Positions 9,221 through 44,700 of a DNA stretch of 64,000 bases are shown here, in pieces. The stretch spans positions 128,001-192,000 of the IMG/VR virus record IMGVR_UViG_3300047160_009226; one strand, 5' to 3'. Under the pieces are notes generated by a model. That model saw nothing but the letters and a program-made list of their open reading frames with translations. It searched no databases and was not told where the DNA came from. Made by a program: the position numbers and the translations under genes. Each line of letters begins with the position of its first letter. Positions within the stretch are counted from its first letter, which is position 1. This DNA is from a virus (taxonomy: Duplodnaviria; Caudoviricetes).

Positions 9221-10588
9221 CTAAACTCTAATTGAAATAGAACCCCTCTGCACCAGCAAAGCTTTTCTCCTAGTTCCCAATCGCTCGTAAGTTTCTCGCG
9301 TCACATATACCTTAGGCCACGGATATGCGCTAAACCTTATTTCTGCCACTTCAGTCCTCATGTCTGTTCCACAAAAACGACATTCATCCCGTTCAATCAA
9401 GTCCAACTTATGGCAACCGGGACATTTGTAAGTCTTTGCCGCTAAAATCTTGTTCTCCCTTGGAATCTTACTTGAAACCAACCAAAAAGCTCGAAACATG
9501 GATTCCAGTCTCTGTATCCGTGCTGGAATGGAAGGAGGAGCCATTCTCAATGTATGCGCAATCTCCTCGATTTGCAAACCAGCCATCAATAGAGTATAAA
9601 AATCCATCCACGTTCGCCGCTCTTTAATCATGATCGAAGGATCATAATTCGGGTTAGAGAAATCCTTCTGTGTAATAAAATCTCCTGTAAACATATCGAC
9701 ATACTGCGCATGATCCACCGGATCTTGTGTAATATAATCCACTAGTAAATAATTGGGAACCATTGGGCAAATTCCAATGTCATTAAGTTCAGGAGTTGTT
9801 ACCCTACTATTGAAACGTCCTCCTTGAAGATAGAAAACATTCATCTCTACCAATGTTGGAATTTCAATAGTTCCTGGAGGAAGAAGAGTGCATAACTTTT
9901 CAAAATCGCGACGCACAATAGTCCTGATTGGTTTCTGTAATCTCAAATATCTCTCCCAATCTTCCATAACCTCCTGCCTGATGAGATCGTCCTCAAGAAA
10001 CTCATCCTGATTGAGATCGTATAAACAGGATGCAGCTGTTCTGCCGTGTTTATCACGATCGTGTTCTCTGTCTAAAGAAAAAGCACCAGTTGTCACCTTC
10101 TTGCTTCTCCTTGACTTATATGTGTGCACATACCGTTGAATCGGCTTCAACAAAAAGTTGCGCCACGGTGAGACCAGTGGATTATATCTCTCCACCCATC
10201 TTGCCTTCACCCACTTTAGAGACATTTCCTGTACGATATCTTCAACATCATCATTCAACACTCTTGTACTGCGGACCAGTTGACATAACCAATCACGGCC
10301 ATTGCTCGATGAAAAAGCCTGCTCGAATGTTTGACCAGTGAATCCATAATTCTCAATCAACAACCGATATCTATCTCTGTAGAATTCCTCCCATGAGTCA
10401 TATGTTTTATTCAACCTCGCAAGAATGTTAATAGCTTCCTCACTGTAAAGCGAAAAACCATCTATAAAAATTTTCAAAATCTCAGCTTCCTCACCCTCCC
10501 TGGAGCATTCCCTCGCCAATAACTCAAGAATGTTCACACTCTCTGGAGTGAGGATCCACATCTGTGCTTTCTCCCGGTTGGAGTCCAT
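9221..10588 (-). CDS. Large sigma-factor-like protein with internal insertion and C-terminal zinc ribbon
   Basis: Region-2-like DDVEDIVQEMSLKW...RYNPLVSPWRNFLLKPIQRYV; region-4-like HTH LQIEEIAHTLRMAPPSIPARIQRL; CPGC...CRFC zinc ribbon. Confidence 0.6.
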   Translation of the reverse strand: MDSNREKAQMWILTPESVNILELLARECSREGEEAEILKIFIDGFSLYSEEAINILARLNKTYDSWEEFYRDRYRLLIENYGFTGQTFEQAFSSSNGRDWLCQLVRSTRVLNDDVEDIVQEMSLKWVKARWVERYNPLVSPWRNFLLKPIQRYVHTYKSRRSKKVTTGAFSLDREHDRDKHGRTAASCLYDLNQDEFLEDDLIRQEVMEDWERYLRLQKPIRTIVRRDFEKLCTLLPPGTIEIPTLVEMNVFYLQGGRFNSRVTTPELNDIGICPMVPNYLLVDYITQDPVDHAQYVDMFTGDFITQKDFSNPNYDPSIMIKERRTWMDFYTLLMAGLQIEEIAHTLRMAPPSIPARIQRLESMFRAFWLVSSKIPRENKILAAKTYKCPGCHKLDLIERDECRFCGTDMRTEVAEIRFSAYPWPKVYVTRETYERLGTRRKALLVQRGSISIRV

Positions 10589-10750: not shown

Positions 10751-12046
10751 TCACAAAACCTTGACGTTCGATATCCCTTGTACCAATCGACGTAGATGCC
10801 CCTCAGAGACCCGCTCAAGAGACCTTAAAGAATATGCACGATCGCCCATCTTGATCAATAGTGGCACCTTTACTACATTCTGTACATGCGCTGCCTGAAA
10901 GATCGCCAGGTGGAGTCTACCTGCGTCTTCTGCTGTAATCCCTGACACCAAGAGCGTTACATCGTCTCTTTTAGGCGAAGCCTTCTCTGGCTTTGGCAAA
11001 TCCTTTGTTGCTGGATCGAGATCATCAATTCCTGTCAGATTCCCCCAATTATCTCCAATCTCAATATCAACTTTCAGTGGAATATTCCATTTAGGAATGG
11101 TAGGGAGGATTTTCCCTTTAGGAGTAAGCGTCATTTCCCGGCCGATGTCCCGTAAAATTTCATACATTGCTGCGGATTCACGGATCTCAAAGTCCAATTC
11201 ATCATGAACTGTCAACATCATTTTCACGTCATCACATAACTTTTGCTTTGTGAGAAAAGAATCAACACGAGTCATGGCTATCTTCAACAGATCAGCACTC
11301 GATCCCTGAATCGGGCTGTTACATGCCGTTCTGTGACAGAATCCATGACCCATCTTCTTTCCGGCTTTCTTCCCTTTCCCCGTACCTACATTCTCATTGG
11401 CCTTGGCAATCATCGCCTTCATCTCACGTTTACGTCGAAAGAATGTCCAGACATGTCCATGTTCCTTATAATACTCTTCCTGATTCTTTGTCCATTTTTT
11501 ATAAGTCGGAACAGCACCACACCACTTCCTCCATGCAATAACTGCTTCAGCGTATGTTAGTGTTGTCAAATGCCAAAATGTATCAACACCAGAAAGATAT
11601 AGATTTCCGAAGTTGCCCATCTTAGCAATGTCTCGTTGAGCCTTATCCGGTTCGTCAGTTCGGAACATAACACGAGCCATCTCAAAATGTAAATCTCTGT
11701 CCTCCTGAAATGCTTTGACCCAGACAGGCTCACCGGACAGAAGTGCTGCCACTCGAAGCTCGATCCCAGCAAAGTCGATGCATGCCCACTTGAATCCTGG
11801 TCTAGCTATGAATGCTTCTCGAATATTGATCCCAGGGCCGATCTTGATGGTCGTCTCTTCTTTGTCACAAATAGGAAAATACAGACAACCATCACAAGAA
11901 GGACGTACACAGTAATTTGCTTTGTCACGGATATAAAAATACTTCTCCTCCGGATGCTGAAGTTTTTTCTCGGGATCAGGATAGTATGTCAAGAGCTGCT
12001 TGGGAGGCTTGACATCACCAACTTCAAGGGTTTTCTTCTCAGCCAT
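10751..12046 (-). CDS. polA: Family A DNA polymerase, C-terminal (catalytic) part of a split gene
   Basis: Motif A IDFAGIELR, motif B RDIAKMGNFGNLY, ACNSPIQGSSADLLK, motif C VHDEL; has its own RBS (AGGAGATAGGTC-ATG). Confidence 0.93.
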   Translation of the reverse strand: MAEKKTLEVGDVKPPKQLLTYYPDPEKKLQHPEEKYFYIRDKANYCVRPSCDGCLYFPICDKEETTIKIGPGINIREAFIARPGFKWACIDFAGIELRVAALLSGEPVWVKAFQEDRDLHFEMARVMFRTDEPDKAQRDIAKMGNFGNLYLSGVDTFWHLTTLTYAEAVIAWRKWCGAVPTYKKWTKNQEEYYKEHGHVWTFFRRKREMKAMIAKANENVGTGKGKKAGKKMGHGFCHRTACNSPIQGSSADLLKIAMTRVDSFLTKQKLCDDVKMMLTVHDELDFEIRESAAMYEILRDIGREMTLTPKGKILPTIPKWNIPLKVDIEIGDNWGNLTGIDDLDPATKDLPKPEKASPKRDDVTLLVSGITAEDAGRLHLAIFQAAHVQNVVKVPLLIKMGDRAYSLRSLERVSEGHLRRLVQGISNVKVL

Positions 12047-12064
12047 GACCTATCTCCTAGTTAT

Positions 12065-12238
12065 TTACACATTTTTGACCTGATATCCAGGAAGCACTGG
12101 CCCAACAAATCCAGGTGATGATGGGTCATGAAGCCAAAAATATACAATTAGATTGGGATCAAGCAATCCTAATCTAACCATCAACTCAACATCAACCTCT
12201 CTCTGGCCAAACCATTTCATCATTTCTTTTGTTGGCAT
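12065..12238 (-). CDS. Small ORF (57 aa, MPTKEMMKWFGQREV...YQVKNV) between the two polA halves
   Basis: Read by hand; below the ORF-track length cutoff; fills most of the 215 bp gap; no clear RBS. Confidence 0.45.
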   Translation of the reverse strand: MPTKEMMKWFGQREVDVELMVRLGLLDPNLIVYFWLHDPSSPGFVGPVLPGYQVKNV

Positions 12239-12261
12239 TGTTTTTCAATCATTTACTATAG

Positions 12262-13494
12262 TTATTTATTCGGGTCTTCAATCTTCACCCGCCTAACTTT
12301 AGCCGTCTTATAATCACTGGCGCTGGTAATTGCCTGCGGGTTCATTGGAGTGTACAGACTGTCGCCCTTGTCCACTCCTCCTGATGAAAATCTACCCGTA
12401 GGAGCCCCAATCGAGACGAACCGAAAAACCACCGAAGGACTGTCTTCAGTGGCAGTCAACAAAGGATCAACATAAGTTGTTATTTCCTTCACAATCGATC
12501 GATAAAAAAGAATGTCATCGACAATAGGATGCTCTTTCGCCAAAGGTGTAAGTGCTTTGGCGTTAGTCTCGTAATTCACCTGCTTCTCGTTCTGAGTTCT
12601 CTTCAATGGCACTCCCTTCTCTCTCAGAACCCGAGCCACTTCCTTGTTGGAGTCCAAGTCAAACTCTTCCTTCAAGTCGTCATAAATACCAGAAGAGACG
12701 TCATCGACCCATCGCTCCAGATCCTTATGTGCCTGCTGCAAAAATGCCCGATCAATCGTAATCCGATTCTCTGTCATTCGGCCCAACGTGCCAAGAAGTC
12801 TATGCTCCATATCGGCAATGAATCCTTGCTCTCGATCCACTTCTGGCTTACAAATATCTAAGACTGCCAATGAAAAGACTGGGTCGGCTGCCGCATATAG
12901 TGTAGCTTCTTCAGGATTCGAAAGAGAAAAGTCAATCTCCTTGGATCGCTTCCCTTTCCTAATCCCAGGAACATCATGAATGAGGTTCATCTCCTGCTTA
13001 CAAATCTCTAAGGCCGCATCCTTAAGGTTGAATTGTTTTTTATCAGAGTCGTACAGCCAACGATATACCATAGCATCGTTGAGGCTTTTTAGGGTGGTAT
13101 CACGATATACCCCCTTGTTCCGAAGAATCGTTCCCTCAAACTCCCAGTTATACACAACCACTAGTCTATGTTCAATCTCGTCCAACAACATCTGCCATAC
13201 TTGACTTGGATCCAGGTTCATTTCTGGAAAATTCATATGCTTGATCGGGACATATACCCCCTCCCTTTCTGTGAATGCCAAACAAAAACCGCACACAGAT
13301 TCCCATGTGCGGCTTAAGTCCTTCGTTTCAAAGTCGATCGAGATTCTATTAAATGCGTGCCCTCTCTGAAAGAATTCCCGAAGCTCTGACAAGGTCGTGA
13401 TCTGATACAATCTCCTCTCCGTCATCCACTCTTTCCACAAATGAGACTCCGCGAACGCTTTCTGAGTCTCTAAGGAAAAAGTATCAACTTGCAT
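12262..13494 (-). CDS. polA: Family A DNA polymerase, N-terminal part (3'-5' exonuclease plus start of polymerase domain)
   Basis: ExoI IDFET, ExoII-like YNWEFE, ExoIII YAAAD, FDLDSNKEVARVL, and TGRFSS...MNPQAI (equivalent to TGRLSS..PNLQNIP). Confidence 0.9.
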   Translation of the reverse strand: MQVDTFSLETQKAFAESHLWKEWMTERRLYQITTLSELREFFQRGHAFNRISIDFETKDLSRTWESVCGFCLAFTEREGVYVPIKHMNFPEMNLDPSQVWQMLLDEIEHRLVVVYNWEFEGTILRNKGVYRDTTLKSLNDAMVYRWLYDSDKKQFNLKDAALEICKQEMNLIHDVPGIRKGKRSKEIDFSLSNPEEATLYAAADPVFSLAVLDICKPEVDREQGFIADMEHRLLGTLGRMTENRITIDRAFLQQAHKDLERWVDDVSSGIYDDLKEEFDLDSNKEVARVLREKGVPLKRTQNEKQVNYETNAKALTPLAKEHPIVDDILFYRSIVKEITTYVDPLLTATEDSPSVVFRFVSIGAPTGRFSSGGVDKGDSLYTPMNPQAITSASDYKTAKVRRVKIEDPNK

Positions 13495-15022: not shown

Positions 15023-15700
15023 TTAAGAATTCGCTTGAGGCAATCGTCTCCACATGCGAGGACTCTCATCGTTGATTCTACTACGACGTGCTAACATGGC
15101 CTGCCAAACACGACGCTCACGCTGGTCCTGTTCGTACTCGGAATATTCACGCCAAACTGTCATGCACTTATCATTATAAAGCTTGCGGAGTCCATGATCT
15201 CGGATCTGTCTGATCCGTTCCCTCGTAAGCTTAAAGATGCGGCCAACCTCCATAAGCGTGTAAGTATCTCCAGTCTCAATACCATACAAGAGTCTAAGAA
15301 TAGTTGCCTCACGTTCCTGAACGAACCTCATCGCCTCGGTAAGTTTAGCCGCAATGGCTTGTCGCTCACTCTGCTCTTCATACTCTGTAAGCCAATAGTG
15401 CTTGTCAATCACATCCTCAGACCAGAGTGGAAAAGCACCGACCACAGGATCACGATGATATGCTTTGCCATATGCTATACTGATCTGCCATAGAGCGTGT
15501 TTAGCACACCAACTAGAAAGTTTGGTACGTTTGATGTTATTCGGATCGTAGGTACGGTAAGCAAAAAGTATACCATACCAAGCCTCCTGAATCAAATCAT
15601 TGATAGAGATAGATTGATAATACGTTGAAGCCTTGGCGCGTTTAGCTGCCCAGATCGCTAAACGACGGTGCTTGATCAAGAACTCCTGTTCAGTTTCCAC
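15023..15700 (-). CDS. Sigma-70 family RNA polymerase sigma factor
   Basis: Region 2 (DLIQEAWYGILFAYRTYDP) and near-canonical region 4.2 (YTLMEVGRIFKLTRERIRQIRDHGLRKL). Confidence 0.92.
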   Translation of the reverse strand: METEQEFLIKHRRLAIWAAKRAKASTYYQSISINDLIQEAWYGILFAYRTYDPNNIKRTKLSSWCAKHALWQISIAYGKAYHRDPVVGAFPLWSEDVIDKHYWLTEYEEQSERQAIAAKLTEAMRFVQEREATILRLLYGIETGDTYTLMEVGRIFKLTRERIRQIRDHGLRKLYNDKCMTVWREYSEYEQDQRERRVWQAMLARRSRINDESPRMWRRLPQANS

Positions 15701-15978: not shown

Positions 15979-17415
15979 TCATACCACCAATAATTGTGAA
16001 AGTAGCGAATCGTCTGCCCTTGCCAATTCACCGACAAACCTGTATTCGGCTGGCATGTAAATAGAAAAGGGATCGATCAAACCAGCATCTCTCATCTTGA
16101 GATTACAGACGACGGCCTCTCTTTTCTGTCTGAGCGGCTGGTCCTGGTAAACAGTGAACAATGCATCGGCCGTCTTTTCCAATTCACTGGTATCAGCGAT
16201 GGCCTCCCTATCATATATACCCTGAGAGTCGGCCGCTTTCTTCTCCCCCACGCGATTTACTTGACAAGGCGTAATCACAGTGATCCCATAACCGTTGTCG
16301 AACTCCAGGGCTAGTTGTTTACACCGGCTAATATTCTCTGCAATACGCTCATTTCGTGAAAGACGGACTCCCTTTGGTGCTGAAAGTATATTAATGTAAT
16401 CGATCATAATCGCATCTAATGGATATTCACGATTAAAGACTTCTGCCTGTTGCTGAATATCCTCGATACTTGTGCGCCCAATTGGATTAAATACCTGAAT
16501 TGATCCATTAGCACTGTTAAGATCTGGAATCACCGTATTCAAGTAGAAGTCTGCGTCTTCCGTAGAAAGAGTGCCAAATTTAATCTGACTGTGTAAAAGT
16601 GGTTTCCTATTAAACTTGGGATCACAAGCATGAGAACAATAAAGCATTCTTAGAACTTTATCTTTACTCATTTCCAAAGAATAGAACAAGATGTTAAATC
16701 CAAGCAGTACTAGATGTCGTGCCCAGTTGATTATAAACGTACTCTTTCCATGCCCAGTCGCACCTGCCAGAATCCAAAGTTCCTTGTTATGTGCTCCTCC
16801 TGTAGCGTCATCTATCGAACTGATATTCGTCGTCATTCCATAAGAAAGTGCCGGATTTCTTGACTTTCGAATATAATCTTCAGTAAGCTCTTTCGCTCCT
16901 AGACGTAAATCCATCGGCATCTGATTCGGATTTAATTTCTGCTTAAGTTTTGTTGCTCCTGTGACAACATAATCAATGGCATCCCTAACGCCCTGCTTAA
17001 GTTCAGTATTGGCTCCTACTCTAGTTTTCACTCCCTCCTTCATAACCTGTGTCGTATCTTGGAGCAACTGAGAAAGTTCAGAGCCAACAAGGTCTCCGAT
17101 AAACCAACCAAATAAGCTCCGATAACTTGCTCCAAAAGTCTGAGTCTCTACTCCTACCTCTTTAATGTAAAGAATTAAATCTGTATTGAGGTCTACCTCG
17201 GCAAATTGAAGCAATGATGAGATAGATGGAGGTCCAGCCAGGTTTGATCTCTCATAAAACTGCTTAACCAAATCAAATGTGCTGCCCTCTACGGCCGAAA
17301 GACTCACGGATTCTATATTAGTATATCGATAATTCTCCAAGGCCTTAATTTCTTCGTCTGGAGTATTTGCGCAAAGTGATCTCAAAACCATCTTCGTCAG
17401 TGTCTTCTTATTCAT
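15979..17415 (-). CDS. dnaB: Replicative DNA helicase, DnaB-like (SF4)
   Basis: Walker A LAGATGHGKST, FYSLEM, Walker B AIMIDY, CQVNR, LEKTADALF, LKMRD. Confidence 0.93.
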   Translation of the reverse strand: MNKKTLTKMVLRSLCANTPDEEIKALENYRYTNIESVSLSAVEGSTFDLVKQFYERSNLAGPPSISSLLQFAEVDLNTDLILYIKEVGVETQTFGASYRSLFGWFIGDLVGSELSQLLQDTTQVMKEGVKTRVGANTELKQGVRDAIDYVVTGATKLKQKLNPNQMPMDLRLGAKELTEDYIRKSRNPALSYGMTTNISSIDDATGGAHNKELWILAGATGHGKSTFIINWARHLVLLGFNILFYSLEMSKDKVLRMLYCSHACDPKFNRKPLLHSQIKFGTLSTEDADFYLNTVIPDLNSANGSIQVFNPIGRTSIEDIQQQAEVFNREYPLDAIMIDYINILSAPKGVRLSRNERIAENISRCKQLALEFDNGYGITVITPCQVNRVGEKKAADSQGIYDREAIADTSELEKTADALFTVYQDQPLRQKREAVVCNLKMRDAGLIDPFSIYMPAEYRFVGELARADDSLLSQLLVV

Positions 17416-18130: not shown

Positions 18131-19774
18131 CTACTGGGCGATTCGTAGCTTTCTCATCTTTCTTGCAACTTCTACTGACAAAGATCCAACAAACTCAGCC
18201 ACAGGCTCATTACTACTAAGTAATGTCTCAAACTGAAGTGTCTTCGGTCGAAGAATGCTCTCTACCAACTCATCTACAGAATTCTGCATGAGAAGATGCC
18301 AAACTCCCAAGTATCGGTGCTCCGACCCAAATCTACGGGCTCGACCCACTACCTGTACATACTGCCCAACCGTCCAAGGCATCGAGAAAAAAATAACATG
18401 CTTCGCTCTCTGTAGATTTAATGCTTCTCCTCCCGCATCCGTCATCAACATCAAATTGGATCGGCCCTCCTGAAAATCCAATCTAGCTTGATCTCGATCA
18501 GCCTGTTTCACAGATCCCGTAATCACCACCGGATTTTGATCGGCAAGCGCTGACTTCAAATGCCAAATCGAAGTCGAAAAAGGAGAGTATATAATAACAG
18601 GATCATCTTCAAGCTCATTACTAAGAAGATCTTTTAGCATGGCTAATTTAGTATTCTTTTCTTGGACAGCTTTATACTCCAATCGCTTATTTGTGTCTGT
18701 ATGAAAAACAGATGGAAAGCCATCAACTTCCAGTGGCAAGCTGATATCAATAAAGTGCTCTGGAGTTGATGCGGCAATCTGTGCATGAGCGAGTGCTGAA
18801 TTAGCAGCTATGACATCATTATCATAGTCAGCCAAAAATAAACCACGTTCTGCGTCAGCGTAGACCCTACGATGCAGTGACGACATGGTCTCCCGACGAC
18901 TCACCGTCTGTACCTCAGGACGCTCCAGATCCATCTCTGATTCTGGTGGAGAGAGATAAAGATGAGATACCCTTGCAGCAAAGTCCGGTAGATTCTTATA
19001 GCCCTCGATCGTCTTGATCGTAATGAACCGTCGTCCCCCTCCCTTTCCTGTACGCATGGGAACCTTTTTTAGTCCCTGAATCACATAGGTTCGATTAAAA
19101 AAGATCAAAGACATCGTCCCTGGATTTAACAGGTTCAAGATATGCAATGCATCATGTGCCTTATTCTTAATAAGAGTCGCCGTAAAACCGTGGATTCGTG
19201 GGACAATCTCAGAAAGCTGCTGTGTAATTTTATAAAGCTTGGACTTTGGATTCCTCACACGCTGGCACTCGTCCAAGATCACCCATGTACCCTCCTTCCA
19301 GAGATCCTGCGTCTCCAAAAAGAAGTCCCAGTCCCTCTGATACTGGCTCCAACTGAGACACAACATTGATCCCATACCAATCTTAATCCATTCCTGATAG
19401 TAACGCTCGCGTTCCCGGTTAGGAGCATCTTCGCTCGATGGTACCTCAGTGCACGGAACACCCGGTAGAAATCTGTGGCACTCGTCACACCACTGCGATA
19501 CAGCGGACTTGGTTGTTACAACCAATAACCTGGATGATCTTTGCTCACGAAAAATTCCCCAAGCATTCAGACCACAAATAGTTTTCCCAGATCCTGTCAC
19601 ATGACCTAACACGAACCGTTTCATCACCAATAGATGAGAAACAGCTACTCGCTGATACTTGCGGAGCGGAAACTCGGTATTCCAACTTGAAGGCACTGGC
19701 AGATTGGGATTATCCCTCTGATCCCGGATTTTCTGCAGGGCCTGTTGCGCATCAGAAACTACGATCATTCTCAA
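18131..19774 (-). CDS. SNF2-family (SF2) helicase
   Basis: LRKYQ Q-motif, GSGKT, ILDECQ, TATLIKN, TDAGGEALNLQRAKHVIF, QVVGRARRFG. Confidence 0.93.
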   Translation of the reverse strand: MRMIVVSDAQQALQKIRDQRDNPNLPVPSSWNTEFPLRKYQRVAVSHLLVMKRFVLGHVTGSGKTICGLNAWGIFREQRSSRLLVVTTKSAVSQWCDECHRFLPGVPCTEVPSSEDAPNRERERYYQEWIKIGMGSMLCLSWSQYQRDWDFFLETQDLWKEGTWVILDECQRVRNPKSKLYKITQQLSEIVPRIHGFTATLIKNKAHDALHILNLLNPGTMSLIFFNRTYVIQGLKKVPMRTGKGGGRRFITIKTIEGYKNLPDFAARVSHLYLSPPESEMDLERPEVQTVSRRETMSSLHRRVYADAERGLFLADYDNDVIAANSALAHAQIAASTPEHFIDISLPLEVDGFPSVFHTDTNKRLEYKAVQEKNTKLAMLKDLLSNELEDDPVIIYSPFSTSIWHLKSALADQNPVVITGSVKQADRDQARLDFQEGRSNLMLMTDAGGEALNLQRAKHVIFFSMPWTVGQYVQVVGRARRFGSEHRYLGVWHLLMQNSVDELVESILRPKTLQFETLLSSNEPVAEFVGSLSVEVARKMRKLRIAQ

Positions 19775-41754: not shown

Positions 41755-44700
41755 TCACAAACCGATGTAATACCACGGAACAGAAATCTGATGCACTCCC
41801 GCTGAATAAATTAAACTGACGATAATTCCTCCATCTTCAGGATCTACAGGGAAAGAATCAATCTGATCTCCAATCCATCCATAAATAAAGAAAGTAATCG
41901 AATTTTTGCCACTACCAACACCAGCAATTGGCTGAGAAGAACTATATGAATTACCAGCCAAGTCAGAGATTCTGAGATTAACACTTCCATCTGCGATAAA
42001 ATTAACAGTCGATAAAGTCGCATCTGGATTCGTAACCATAACTTGAGCTACAAGCTTCCCCTGAGGTGCAGCACAATCTCCAAGGGAACCACAAGAAAAG
42101 ATCTCTGGTGTCGATTCCACCACAGTCATAATTGTATCGGGTGGTGAAGGTGGTGACGGTGTTGGCGAAGGTGCAGGAGTTATCAAAACATCTTGGAACG
42201 TCAATCTCACAGAGAGTGCACATAGAGCAACTTCAACCGGATCCTGGATCTCCCCATTGCCACCCAAAGAATTAGCAATGACCGCGACCTTCAACCGATT
42301 AATTTGATCTGTAGTCAATCCTGGATCATAGTTCCAAGTGATGAAGTATAATGCCTGATCTGATGTCAAAGGAGAAGTCCATTGCTCTTGTCCAAAATTT
42401 GTAGATACTAAAAGATTAGCGTTTACTGAACTCCAAGTAATCAGTCTTGCTTGAATGATCGCTTCTACCGTAATCCACTCTCTGACATAGCCAGACATTA
42501 CAATAGGGAGGCCCGTAGGCGCTGCCATCTCCAATAATAACTGGTTATTTGTGCGAGGATCTGCTATGACATCATTATCTGAAGCTAGAGTTGGATCAGT
42601 TACTAACATAATCCACGCAGGAATAGGAGTCCATGCCGTTACCGAAATATCAGCCATGGGGATAACATCTACTTGATTAAGCTTGATTAATGGCTGAGAA
42701 ATAGGTTGCGATATTCCAGGGCACCAAGGAGAAATAATCGCATCCATTGCACAAATATCAATAAACGGTATGTCATCATCAAGCAATAAGGCTTCAGAAG
42801 AAAGTCGTATTCTCAAATCTTTAATATTATTAGCTGACCAAAATCCATTCCATATTAAGTCATATTCAAGCCAATTTAAAGTGAGATTGTCTGTATGTTG
42901 GATCAAAGATTCCATTAAGTCCATATTACCTTGAAGACTAACTCCGACCCGACATTCACTTGTCAACTGAAGAGTAGAGCCAATAGTTTGTGTAACCTGA
43001 ATAAAAAATGGCGGAATATCTTGAGAATACTGAATAATATTGAGTCCAGTAACTACATACGGTCCTGTAATCATCAATGCAGCACTGATCGCAGTGCTTC
43101 CAACAGGGGTAGGTAATCCTCCTTTATTCAAAGCAATTTTGTAATAAATGACCGTACTCTGAAACGCTGCTAGGTCAAATACAACTGCTCCATAATAATT
43201 AATTCCGTCTGTACTTACAGAGACTGCAAAATTATCTGAATCTTGCCCAGAGAAAAAGAATTCTGCATGAATATCTATATTCGTTTGTAAAACACCTGCC
43301 CCACTAATTTCCGTAGATGAAACTCGATAGGCCATAAGCTGATTATTACATTCAGCAAAAGGATTCCAGCGAACTTGATAGTTTGGTACTCCAATAGCCA
43401 CTTCATCTGATGTCGGAGCAAACGTAATAATATTAGCTTGAACTCCCGAAAGACTGTTATCAGTCGTACCGGGAGCATTTGATCTGGCTTTAGCAATCAA
43501 CCTAACCTTAATCTGATTGTATCCGGCATCCCAGTGAATCGGACTTGGTGTTAATGCTATCTGTCCAGGAGCCCCTGGCGGAACATTCACCGGAGCCGTA
43601 ATAAAACACACATTCGCAGGAAGAGGAAAAGCTACTGGAGCAGTCAGTTCGACCTCTAATGGTGGAACCTGCCATATACCAGAGAAATCTGTTGCTCGTG
43701 GAGTTAACTGCTGCGGTGGAGGGCAAGGATATACAGCTGGCTCTTTAGTTGCCGGAATTGGCAACGGTGGTGCTGGTGTCTCCGGTTGAGGTGGCCTCGA
43801 TCTTGCAGCCCGAAACCTTAACTGAAGAGCATCCCAAGGTCCCTCCGTAATCGGATTGGTAAACCCAACTTCTAACCTTGGTCTGATTGTACCTGTATAA
43901 TTTCCTGTGGCTTCGTCAAATGTATCTATAGTTGCTGGGCCATAAAGAGGGACAGCAGCATCTACAGGATTATCTGGATTCAAAGGATCATTTAATTGCA
44001 TGAAAGCAGGTCGCGGCTGCCAGAGCCTGACCAAAATATCTCGGTTAGGGCGAAGAATCTCCGATCCAGGAGGAAGTGGCGGTAAAAATACTGGTGGCGG
44101 TGGTGGGAGCGGAGGTAACGGTGTCTCAATCTCGATAAATGGAGGAAGAGTTCCAGGAACATCCGGCGGCTGAATTGGTTCAGTCAGTGGTGGAGAAGGT
44201 GGTGGCGGTAAAAGAGCGGGAGCAATACTGCAGTATGCAATCGTCAGATGATTAATTCGAACGTCACCGGCATCAAGAGTCGCTACTATAACTACTACCC
44301 TGAGCTTTGTGATGCTCGGTAAGTTTGGTAATCCCACAAAAATACCTGAAATAAAATTTGTTGTATATCCGCTACTTAAAGTCACTGAAGAGGAATATTG
44401 ATTATTCCAAAGATTATCAGCTAAATCAAAATACTGAAGTACAATCTTCAAACCAGCGGTTGTAGCATTATTATATCTCGTGGAGATGATAATCTGAGCG
44501 TCACTAGGATTTGTAATAGATGGATATGAAGGAAGTGGAAACTCTACCCCCAATTGACTATTAACTGTCGTCGATCCAACATATTCTTCTTCCAGTGGGA
44601 CAAATGGATCTTCTAACTCTTCAAGCCCACCATACCATCCAAATGAATCTGGTGAGAATCTATATGGCTCCAGAACAAGGGGAGATCCTTGACTGCATAT

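Follow-up and report, generated by a model that had tools for sequence, protein, structure and literature searches.

The locus considered here raises the question of whether a relationship exists between the short C-terminal tail of a phage family A DNA polymerase (PolA) and the C-terminal domain (CTD) of the bacterial replicase DnaE (Pol III alpha) and, if so, what such a domain would do on a polymerase of another family. The CTD of DnaE is its tau-binding domain, which is poorly conserved in sequence, is present in DnaE1 and DnaE3 and is absent from DnaE2 (Timinskas et al., PMC3919608). Binding of this domain to tau has been established by mutagenesis, genetic screens and crystallography, and the domain has hitherto been treated as a feature of DnaE1 and DnaE3 only (PMC3919608).

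The original prediction, which was made by eye from the translated sequence, held that the PolA tail follows the pattern of the E. coli DnaE C-terminus and could link the enzyme with a clamp loader or a helicase. The E. coli sequence used for this comparison was essentially correct when set against the actual sequence. The window, that is, the whole 64,000-nucleotide stretch of DNA that was analysed, covers bases 128001-192000 of a virus record 200,689 bp long, which is estimated to be 91% complete.

Organization of the Split Polymerase

The family A polymerase is encoded by two ORFs that occupy positions 10751-13494 of the window and are broken at the boundary between thumb and fingers. All of the genes in the PolA region lie on the minus strand. 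The parts of the locus, with the basis on which each was assigned, are as follows (window coordinates).

10751-12046, minus strand: PolA C-half, ORF P0001, 431 aa (PF00476 match)
10754..10975, minus strand: CTD of the C-half, residues 358-431 (AF2, Foldseek, VIA-align, hhalign chain, conservation)
10976..11035, minus strand: linker between core and CTD, residues 338-357 (model confidence, alignment)
11036..12046, minus strand: core of the C-half, residues 1-337, comprising an N-terminal leader of ~70 residues and then fingers and palm with motifs A/B/C (PF00476, invariant residues)
11867..11911, minus strand: Cys4 element C46, C51, C54, C60 (CxxxxCxxCxxxxxC) in the leader, ahead of motif A (conservation)
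12065..12238, minus strand: 57-aa ORF inside the 215-bp gap that separates the PolA halves (ORF list)
12262..13494, minus strand: PolA N-half, P0002, 410 aa (PF01612, E 7.7e-07; PF00476 positions 3-123, E 1.2e-16)

Positions 10751-10975 comprise the stop codon and residues 358-431, and the 70-residue peptide quoted in the original prediction is present there as residues 362-431 of P0001. In Pfam searches, residues 72-335 of the C-half correspond to positions 138-380 of PF00476 (E 6.7e-49), and the N-half contains a 3′-5′ exonuclease domain together with the first part of the polymerase domain. Motifs A, B and C and the catalytic acidic residues that define membership of family A are all present; D91 (motif A), R138 and K142 (motif B) and H281-D282-E283 (motif C) are invariant in an alignment of 24 relatives. 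The 57-aa ORF between the halves has no match in Pfam or PHROG.

Within the leader of the C-half, C46, C51 and C60 are invariant among the 24 relatives, and C54 is kept in at least 90% of them. The Cys4 region of the full-length model is of moderate confidence and contains two short strands at residues 37-46. To judge from its sequence, this element is probably zinc-binding (a putative zinc ribbon), and it may serve as an interface with the PolA N-half.

Conservation and Predicted Fold of the CTD

A search of 5.8 billion proteins yielded about 35 relatives of the C-half from metagenomes, with 30-85% identity, nearly all of which align across 89-100% of its length; the commonest form among the relatives found is a split C-half of about 400-440 aa. 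The CTD is kept in all of the 24 relatives that were aligned, down to 33% identity, and it is therefore a real domain rather than a chance tail. P395 and L418 are invariant in these sequences, and A385 and G427 are nearly so. The last ~95 residues of P0001 have no match in Pfam, in PHROGs or, by phmmer, among PDB sequences.

When the CTD was modeled separately with AF2, with the tail as the first row of an alignment taken from the full-length relatives, a model with a pLDDT of 80.9 was obtained in which the elements follow the order beta-alpha-beta-beta-alpha-beta (in the numbering of this model, strand 19-23, helix 28-42, strands 50-56 and 59-62, helix 71-78 and strand 84-86). The AF2 model of full-length P0001 has the same fold at residues 363-430. 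Residues 351-360 have a pLDDT below 50 in the full-length model, as do the equivalent residues in the CTD-only model, which points to a flexible tether between the core and the CTD. The linker begins with a conserved IDDLDP stretch and continues with a segment rich in Pro, Lys and Glu, and both its length and its sequence vary among the relatives.

Structural Similarity to the CTD of Pol III Alpha

The known alpha CTD (PF20914) spans residues ~1082-1160 of the E. coli protein in 5FKU and 5FKV and residues ~1106-1197 of the Taq protein in 2HPI, 3E0D and 4IQJ. In a Foldseek search of 350,542 PDB chains with the predicted CTD, ranks 1-5 were all occupied by Taq Pol III alpha (2hpi, 3e0d_A, 4iqj_B, 4iqj_C and 4iqj_A), the best match having an E value of 0.02, a probability of 1.00, a TM score of 0.58 and an rmsd of 2.4 A over 75 columns; at rank 6, the probability was 0.16. 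VIA-align, a search that is independent of Foldseek and covered the full set of 48,161 representative chains, gave Z ≥ 5 for two chains only, both of which are again Pol III alpha: Taq 2hpi_A, with 78 residues aligned in the range of chain residues 1106-1197 and a Z of 7.3, which is middling on VIA-align's own scale for a small alpha/beta domain, and E. coli 5fku_A, with a Z of 5.5 and an aligned range that ends at residue 1152. Third place was taken by KaiB (Z 3.9), and the scores of generic folds (ferredoxin-like, HMA and 4-OT) lay at 2-3.5. The structural match is carried by both Pol III alpha representatives, which stand apart from every other fold. In the BFVD viral structure library the CTD is without a match (best E 0.15).

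A small domain of this kind might instead be a generic ferredoxin-like alpha/beta domain that came to resemble the DnaE CTD by convergence and has some other role, such as binding DNA, contacting an unrelated phage protein or stabilizing the polymerase. The beta-alpha-beta-beta-alpha-beta arrangement is very common, and the best Z is middling, as such convergence would allow; however, the ferredoxin-like, HMA, KaiB and 4-OT folds reach Z values of 2-4 against 7.3 and 5.5 for Pol III alpha, and in both enzymes the domain comes last in the chain of a replicative polymerase. The sequence comparisons described below bear on the same alternative.

Sequence Relationship of PolA Tails and DnaE CTDs

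Direct comparisons of sequence were negative or marginal, as convergence would also allow. BLASTP produced no alignment between the CTD and that of E. coli DnaE, an HMM of the CTD family gave zero matches to E. coli DnaE (HMMER), and PF20914, a narrow model that passes its cut-off in 1 of 14 control genomes, matched neither the 24 family members nor anything in the whole phage genome. A DnaE CTD profile was built from the C-termini of 27 bacteria representing many phyla. Direct alignment of the P0001 family with this profile by hhalign was weak (P 0.043, 64 columns), with 2 of 200 column shuffles attaining the observed score. This alignment pairs P0001 residues 361-427 with E. coli residues 1082-1151, in a register that places P395 at the Pro of G-x-x-P-V, K/R-V-S-E at R-V-S-P-S and G427 at L-I-G and that agrees with the one perceived in the original prediction.

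Intermediate sequences were obtained by using the family profile to search 1.84 billion cluster representatives, which recovered many further PolAs with C-terminal tails. These tails are connected with one another in iterative searches: jackhmmer seeded with the P0001 tail converges at 47 tails with zero background false positives, the P0120 tail collects the entire P0001 family as well as unsplit PolAs, and the P0141 tail collects P0120, P0121, P0116 and P0117. An HMM of the DnaE CTD was run against a database of 19,344 sequences (115 PolA tails, 27 DnaE tails and 19,201 background ORFs), in which the six best non-DnaE matches, and 12 of the best 18, were PolA tails. With the tails alone as the database, the top PolA tail was P0141 (E 6.6e-6).

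The relationship was then followed by hhalign through a chain of profiles in which the sequence sets are strictly non-overlapping at each step. The P0001 family aligns with the P0120 group (89% probability, P 2e-6, 63 columns), the P0120 group with the P0141 group (96.7% probability, P 3.7e-10), and the P0141 group with the CTDs of the 27 bacterial DnaE proteins (93.5% probability, P 2.3e-7, 58 columns). The score of the last step is 39.1, whereas the column-shuffle null has a mean of 8.1, an sd of 1.4 and a maximum of 12.7. A single register is retained throughout the chain and in the direct alignment.

Taken with the structure match, these transitive profiles indicate that the PolA-tail superfamily is homologous to the DnaE CTD and that the P0001 family is one of the more diverged branches of the superfamily. 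Convergence is judged quite improbable, because every step of the non-overlapping chain is significant in one register and the DnaE-CTD HMM ranks PolA tails above the 19,201 background ORFs. The original prediction had named the lack of both profile and structural similarity to the DnaE CTD as the outcome that would speak against it; both similarities were found, the former mainly by way of the intermediates.

Occurrence on Split and Unsplit Polymerases

Domains of the superfamily are found on split C-halves, namely the P0001 family, P0120 and similar proteins, and also on unsplit PolAs of 700-940 aa that combine the exonuclease and polymerase domains (P0198, P0131, P0154 and P0124). This distribution bears on the possibility that the tail assembles the split polymerase by docking on the N-half or on the product of the 57-aa ORF. 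Such a role would suit an enzyme that is split and whose C-half carries extra terminal elements (the Cys4 leader and the CTD); however, the same domain superfamily is attached to the four unsplit PolAs, and a disordered linker parts the CTD from the core. Since the CTD is carried by split and unsplit PolAs alike, its purpose is not to bring the halves of the split enzyme together, and this highly improbable role was rejected.

Among the metagenomic C-halves, P0106, P0107, P0109 and P0141 are unusually long (720-1208 aa) and have inteins within the polymerase domain, as seen from LAGLIDADG matches in P0106, P0107 and P0109 and from intein-splicing matches in P0106, P0109 and P0141.

In total, roughly 60 PolAs with this tail were recovered from metagenomes. 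Outside these metagenomic sequences the domain was not encountered in the collections searched. The PolA matches in a search of IMG/VR have 21-29% identity (41% across a short fragment) and are all without the tail, and close relatives were likewise absent when IMG/VR was scanned with P0154 and P0198. In GTDB, searched with one genome per species, the best match has 34% identity and covers the polymerase core only, with no CTD. No significant match to the CTD was found in 50,697 phage records, tblastn included, and a scan of JGI metagenomes gave a single close relative (L081). Because the CTD is missing from IMG/VR, the GTDB species genomes, the 50,697 phage records and BFVD, it appears, from these searches, to be confined to uncultured phages that are known from metagenomes alone.

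Replisome Genes and Candidate Partners of the CTD

The phage genome encodes several other proteins that may belong to the same replisome, which are listed here with the coordinates of the virus record (genome) or of the window.

Genome 42466-43698, minus strand: DnaX-like AAA+ protein, 410 aa (PF13177, E 7.8e-31, and a DnaX lid domain)
Genome 104248-105123, minus strand: delta′-like protein, 291 aa (PF13177, E 8.3e-16)
Within genome 103253-105123, minus strand: candidate delta-like protein, a 330-aa ORF that adjoins the delta′-like gene (position)
Window 15979..17415, minus strand: DnaB-type replicative helicase, 478 aa (PF03796, E 9.1e-26)

The 330-aa ORF beside the delta′-like gene matched nothing in Pfam or PHROG. 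No DnaE was detected with PF07733 in the record, which is estimated to be 91% complete. A beta clamp was sought in the whole genome with PF00712, PF02767, PF02768 and TIGR00663, all of which were negative, and with PHROGs on ten neighboring ORFs of fitting size, none of which matched; either the phage clamp has diverged greatly or the host provides one.

The phage DnaX is gamma-sized and has a tail of only ~50 residues past domain III. No tau domain V was detected in it, either by PF12170 or by comparison of the tail profile with tau C-termini (P 0.48). The tail contains the sequence RRAGITKAQ...LTEExLVDLF, which is conserved in 16 relatives of the lineage, and LTEE..LVDL is retained at 57% overall identity. 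The LVDLF of this tail is loosely reminiscent of short linear motifs that bind a clamp or a polymerase.

The reading that is considered rather likely is that the domain homologous to the DnaE CTD docks PolA onto the phage's own clamp-loader/helicase hub, with PolA replacing DnaE. The last ~75 residues would then be a separate small domain, attached by a flexible linker and homologous to the tau-binding CTD of DnaE1 and DnaE3. By analogy with the bacterial arrangement, this domain would serve as a protein-protein docking module that tethers PolA to the hub, which would consist of the DnaX-like protein (410 aa), the delta′-like protein (291 aa) and the candidate delta-like protein (330 aa) together with the phage DnaB. 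A family A polymerase would thus stand in for DnaE within a Pol III-style replisome. The docking reading fits the presence of the phage DnaX-like, delta′-like and DnaB genes and the undetected DnaE; the comparison covers one genome in which the CTD and clamp-loader genes are seen together. We infer that the CTD docks, and the candidate partners are the phage DnaX complex (perhaps by way of its conserved C-terminal peptide), the host tau and DnaB.

As tau domain V could not be detected in the phage DnaX, the classical pairing of the alpha CTD with tau domain V is not simply transferable to this system. One alternative, judged rather unlikely, is that the tail is a true homologue of the DnaE CTD whose partner is the tau of the host; it would connect PolA to the clamp loader and replisome of the host, or it would titrate tau and so help to shut down host replication. 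Bacterial hosts with DnaE1 have tau, whereas tau domain V went undetected in the phage DnaX, and the PolA CTDs that are nearest to bacterial DnaE CTDs match them with 93.5% probability, as would be seen for a module that a bacterial partner still recognizes. On the other hand, the DnaX-like, delta′-like and DnaB genes of the phage suggest a self-contained machine, and the CTD of the P0001 family is strongly diverged from bacterial CTDs, as its direct P of 0.043 indicates.

Docking onto the phage's own hub, the preferred reading, can also be given a more specific form, which is put forward tentatively. A clade of uncultured large phages may have rebuilt a Pol III-style replisome around PolA by capturing the docking domain of DnaE, and the CTD may bind the C-terminal peptide RRAGITKAQ...LTEExLVDLF of the phage DnaX in place of tau domain V, which would constitute a new minimal coupling of polymerase and clamp loader.

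Comparison with Known Systems

The PolA CTD and the CTD of Pol III alpha have in common the beta-alpha-beta-beta-alpha-beta fold, the extreme C-terminal position on a replicative polymerase and the sequence pattern of a hydrophobic strand, a helix, a (G)-x-x-P-V/L strand and R/K-V-S...L..L...G..V. They differ in that the phage domain escapes detection by PF20914, that it has no preceding OB domain and follows the palm directly, after motif C, on a disordered linker of ~20 residues, and that no cognate tau domain V was detected in the phage. A further difference lies in the polymerase that bears the domain, which belongs to family A in the phage and to family C in Pol III alpha. DNA polymerases of families A and C are not homologous. 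A PolA with an alpha CTD would demonstrate that unrelated polymerases can swap replisome docking modules.

Combinations of PolA with bacterial-type accessory proteins are known from other phages. Microcystis phage Ma-LMM01 and Ralstonia phage RSL1 encode PolA together with homologues of beta and gamma (Kazlauskas and Venclovas, 2011, PMC3201878), although the make-up of the working replicase in phages of this type was left unclear (PMC3201878). The present phage is similar to them in being a large phage with a family A polymerase and bacterial-type clamp-loader subunits. It differs in that a beta homologue was undetected with the Pfam and TIGR00663 models used, and in that the account of those phages does not describe PolA as physically connected to the clamp loader (PMC3201878). 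The CTD would offer a concrete, testable physical link for the question of how a replicase is assembled from PolA and clamp-loader subunits.

Accessory modules have also been described on other phage PolAs, namely the thioredoxin-binding loop of T7 gp5 and the UDG-like domain of PolAs of the SPO1/T5 type (PMC3201878). Like these, the CTD is an add-on that plausibly adapts a repair-type PolA to replication. It is unlike them in that the folds are unrelated and the positions are different, the T7 loop being internal to the thumb and the UDG-like domain being N-terminal or internal, and in that both of those modules work via a processivity factor and not via a clamp-loader tether.

The open-access literature that was searched contained no report of a PolA bearing a CTD of the DnaE type, and a survey of jumbo phages is silent on a fusion of PolA with the DnaE CTD (PMC7824862). 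What is new is the occurrence of a known domain in another polymerase family and another replisome context. As the CTD is small and separable, its partner should be findable by pull-down, and the domain could serve as a marker of hybrid replisomes in metagenomes.

Genes Flanking the Polymerase

The replication block is flanked by sigma-70-like genes at 9221-10588 and 15023-15700 of the window, both on the minus strand. The former, a 455-aa ORF immediately downstream of PolA, has a weak match to sigma region 2 (E 0.079), and the latter, an ORF of 225 aa, matches Sigma70_r4 (E 3e-10). A SNF2/DEAD-type helicase of 547 aa (18131-19774, minus strand; Helicase_C, E 4.2e-19) is encoded in the same replication block as DnaB, two genes upstream of it.
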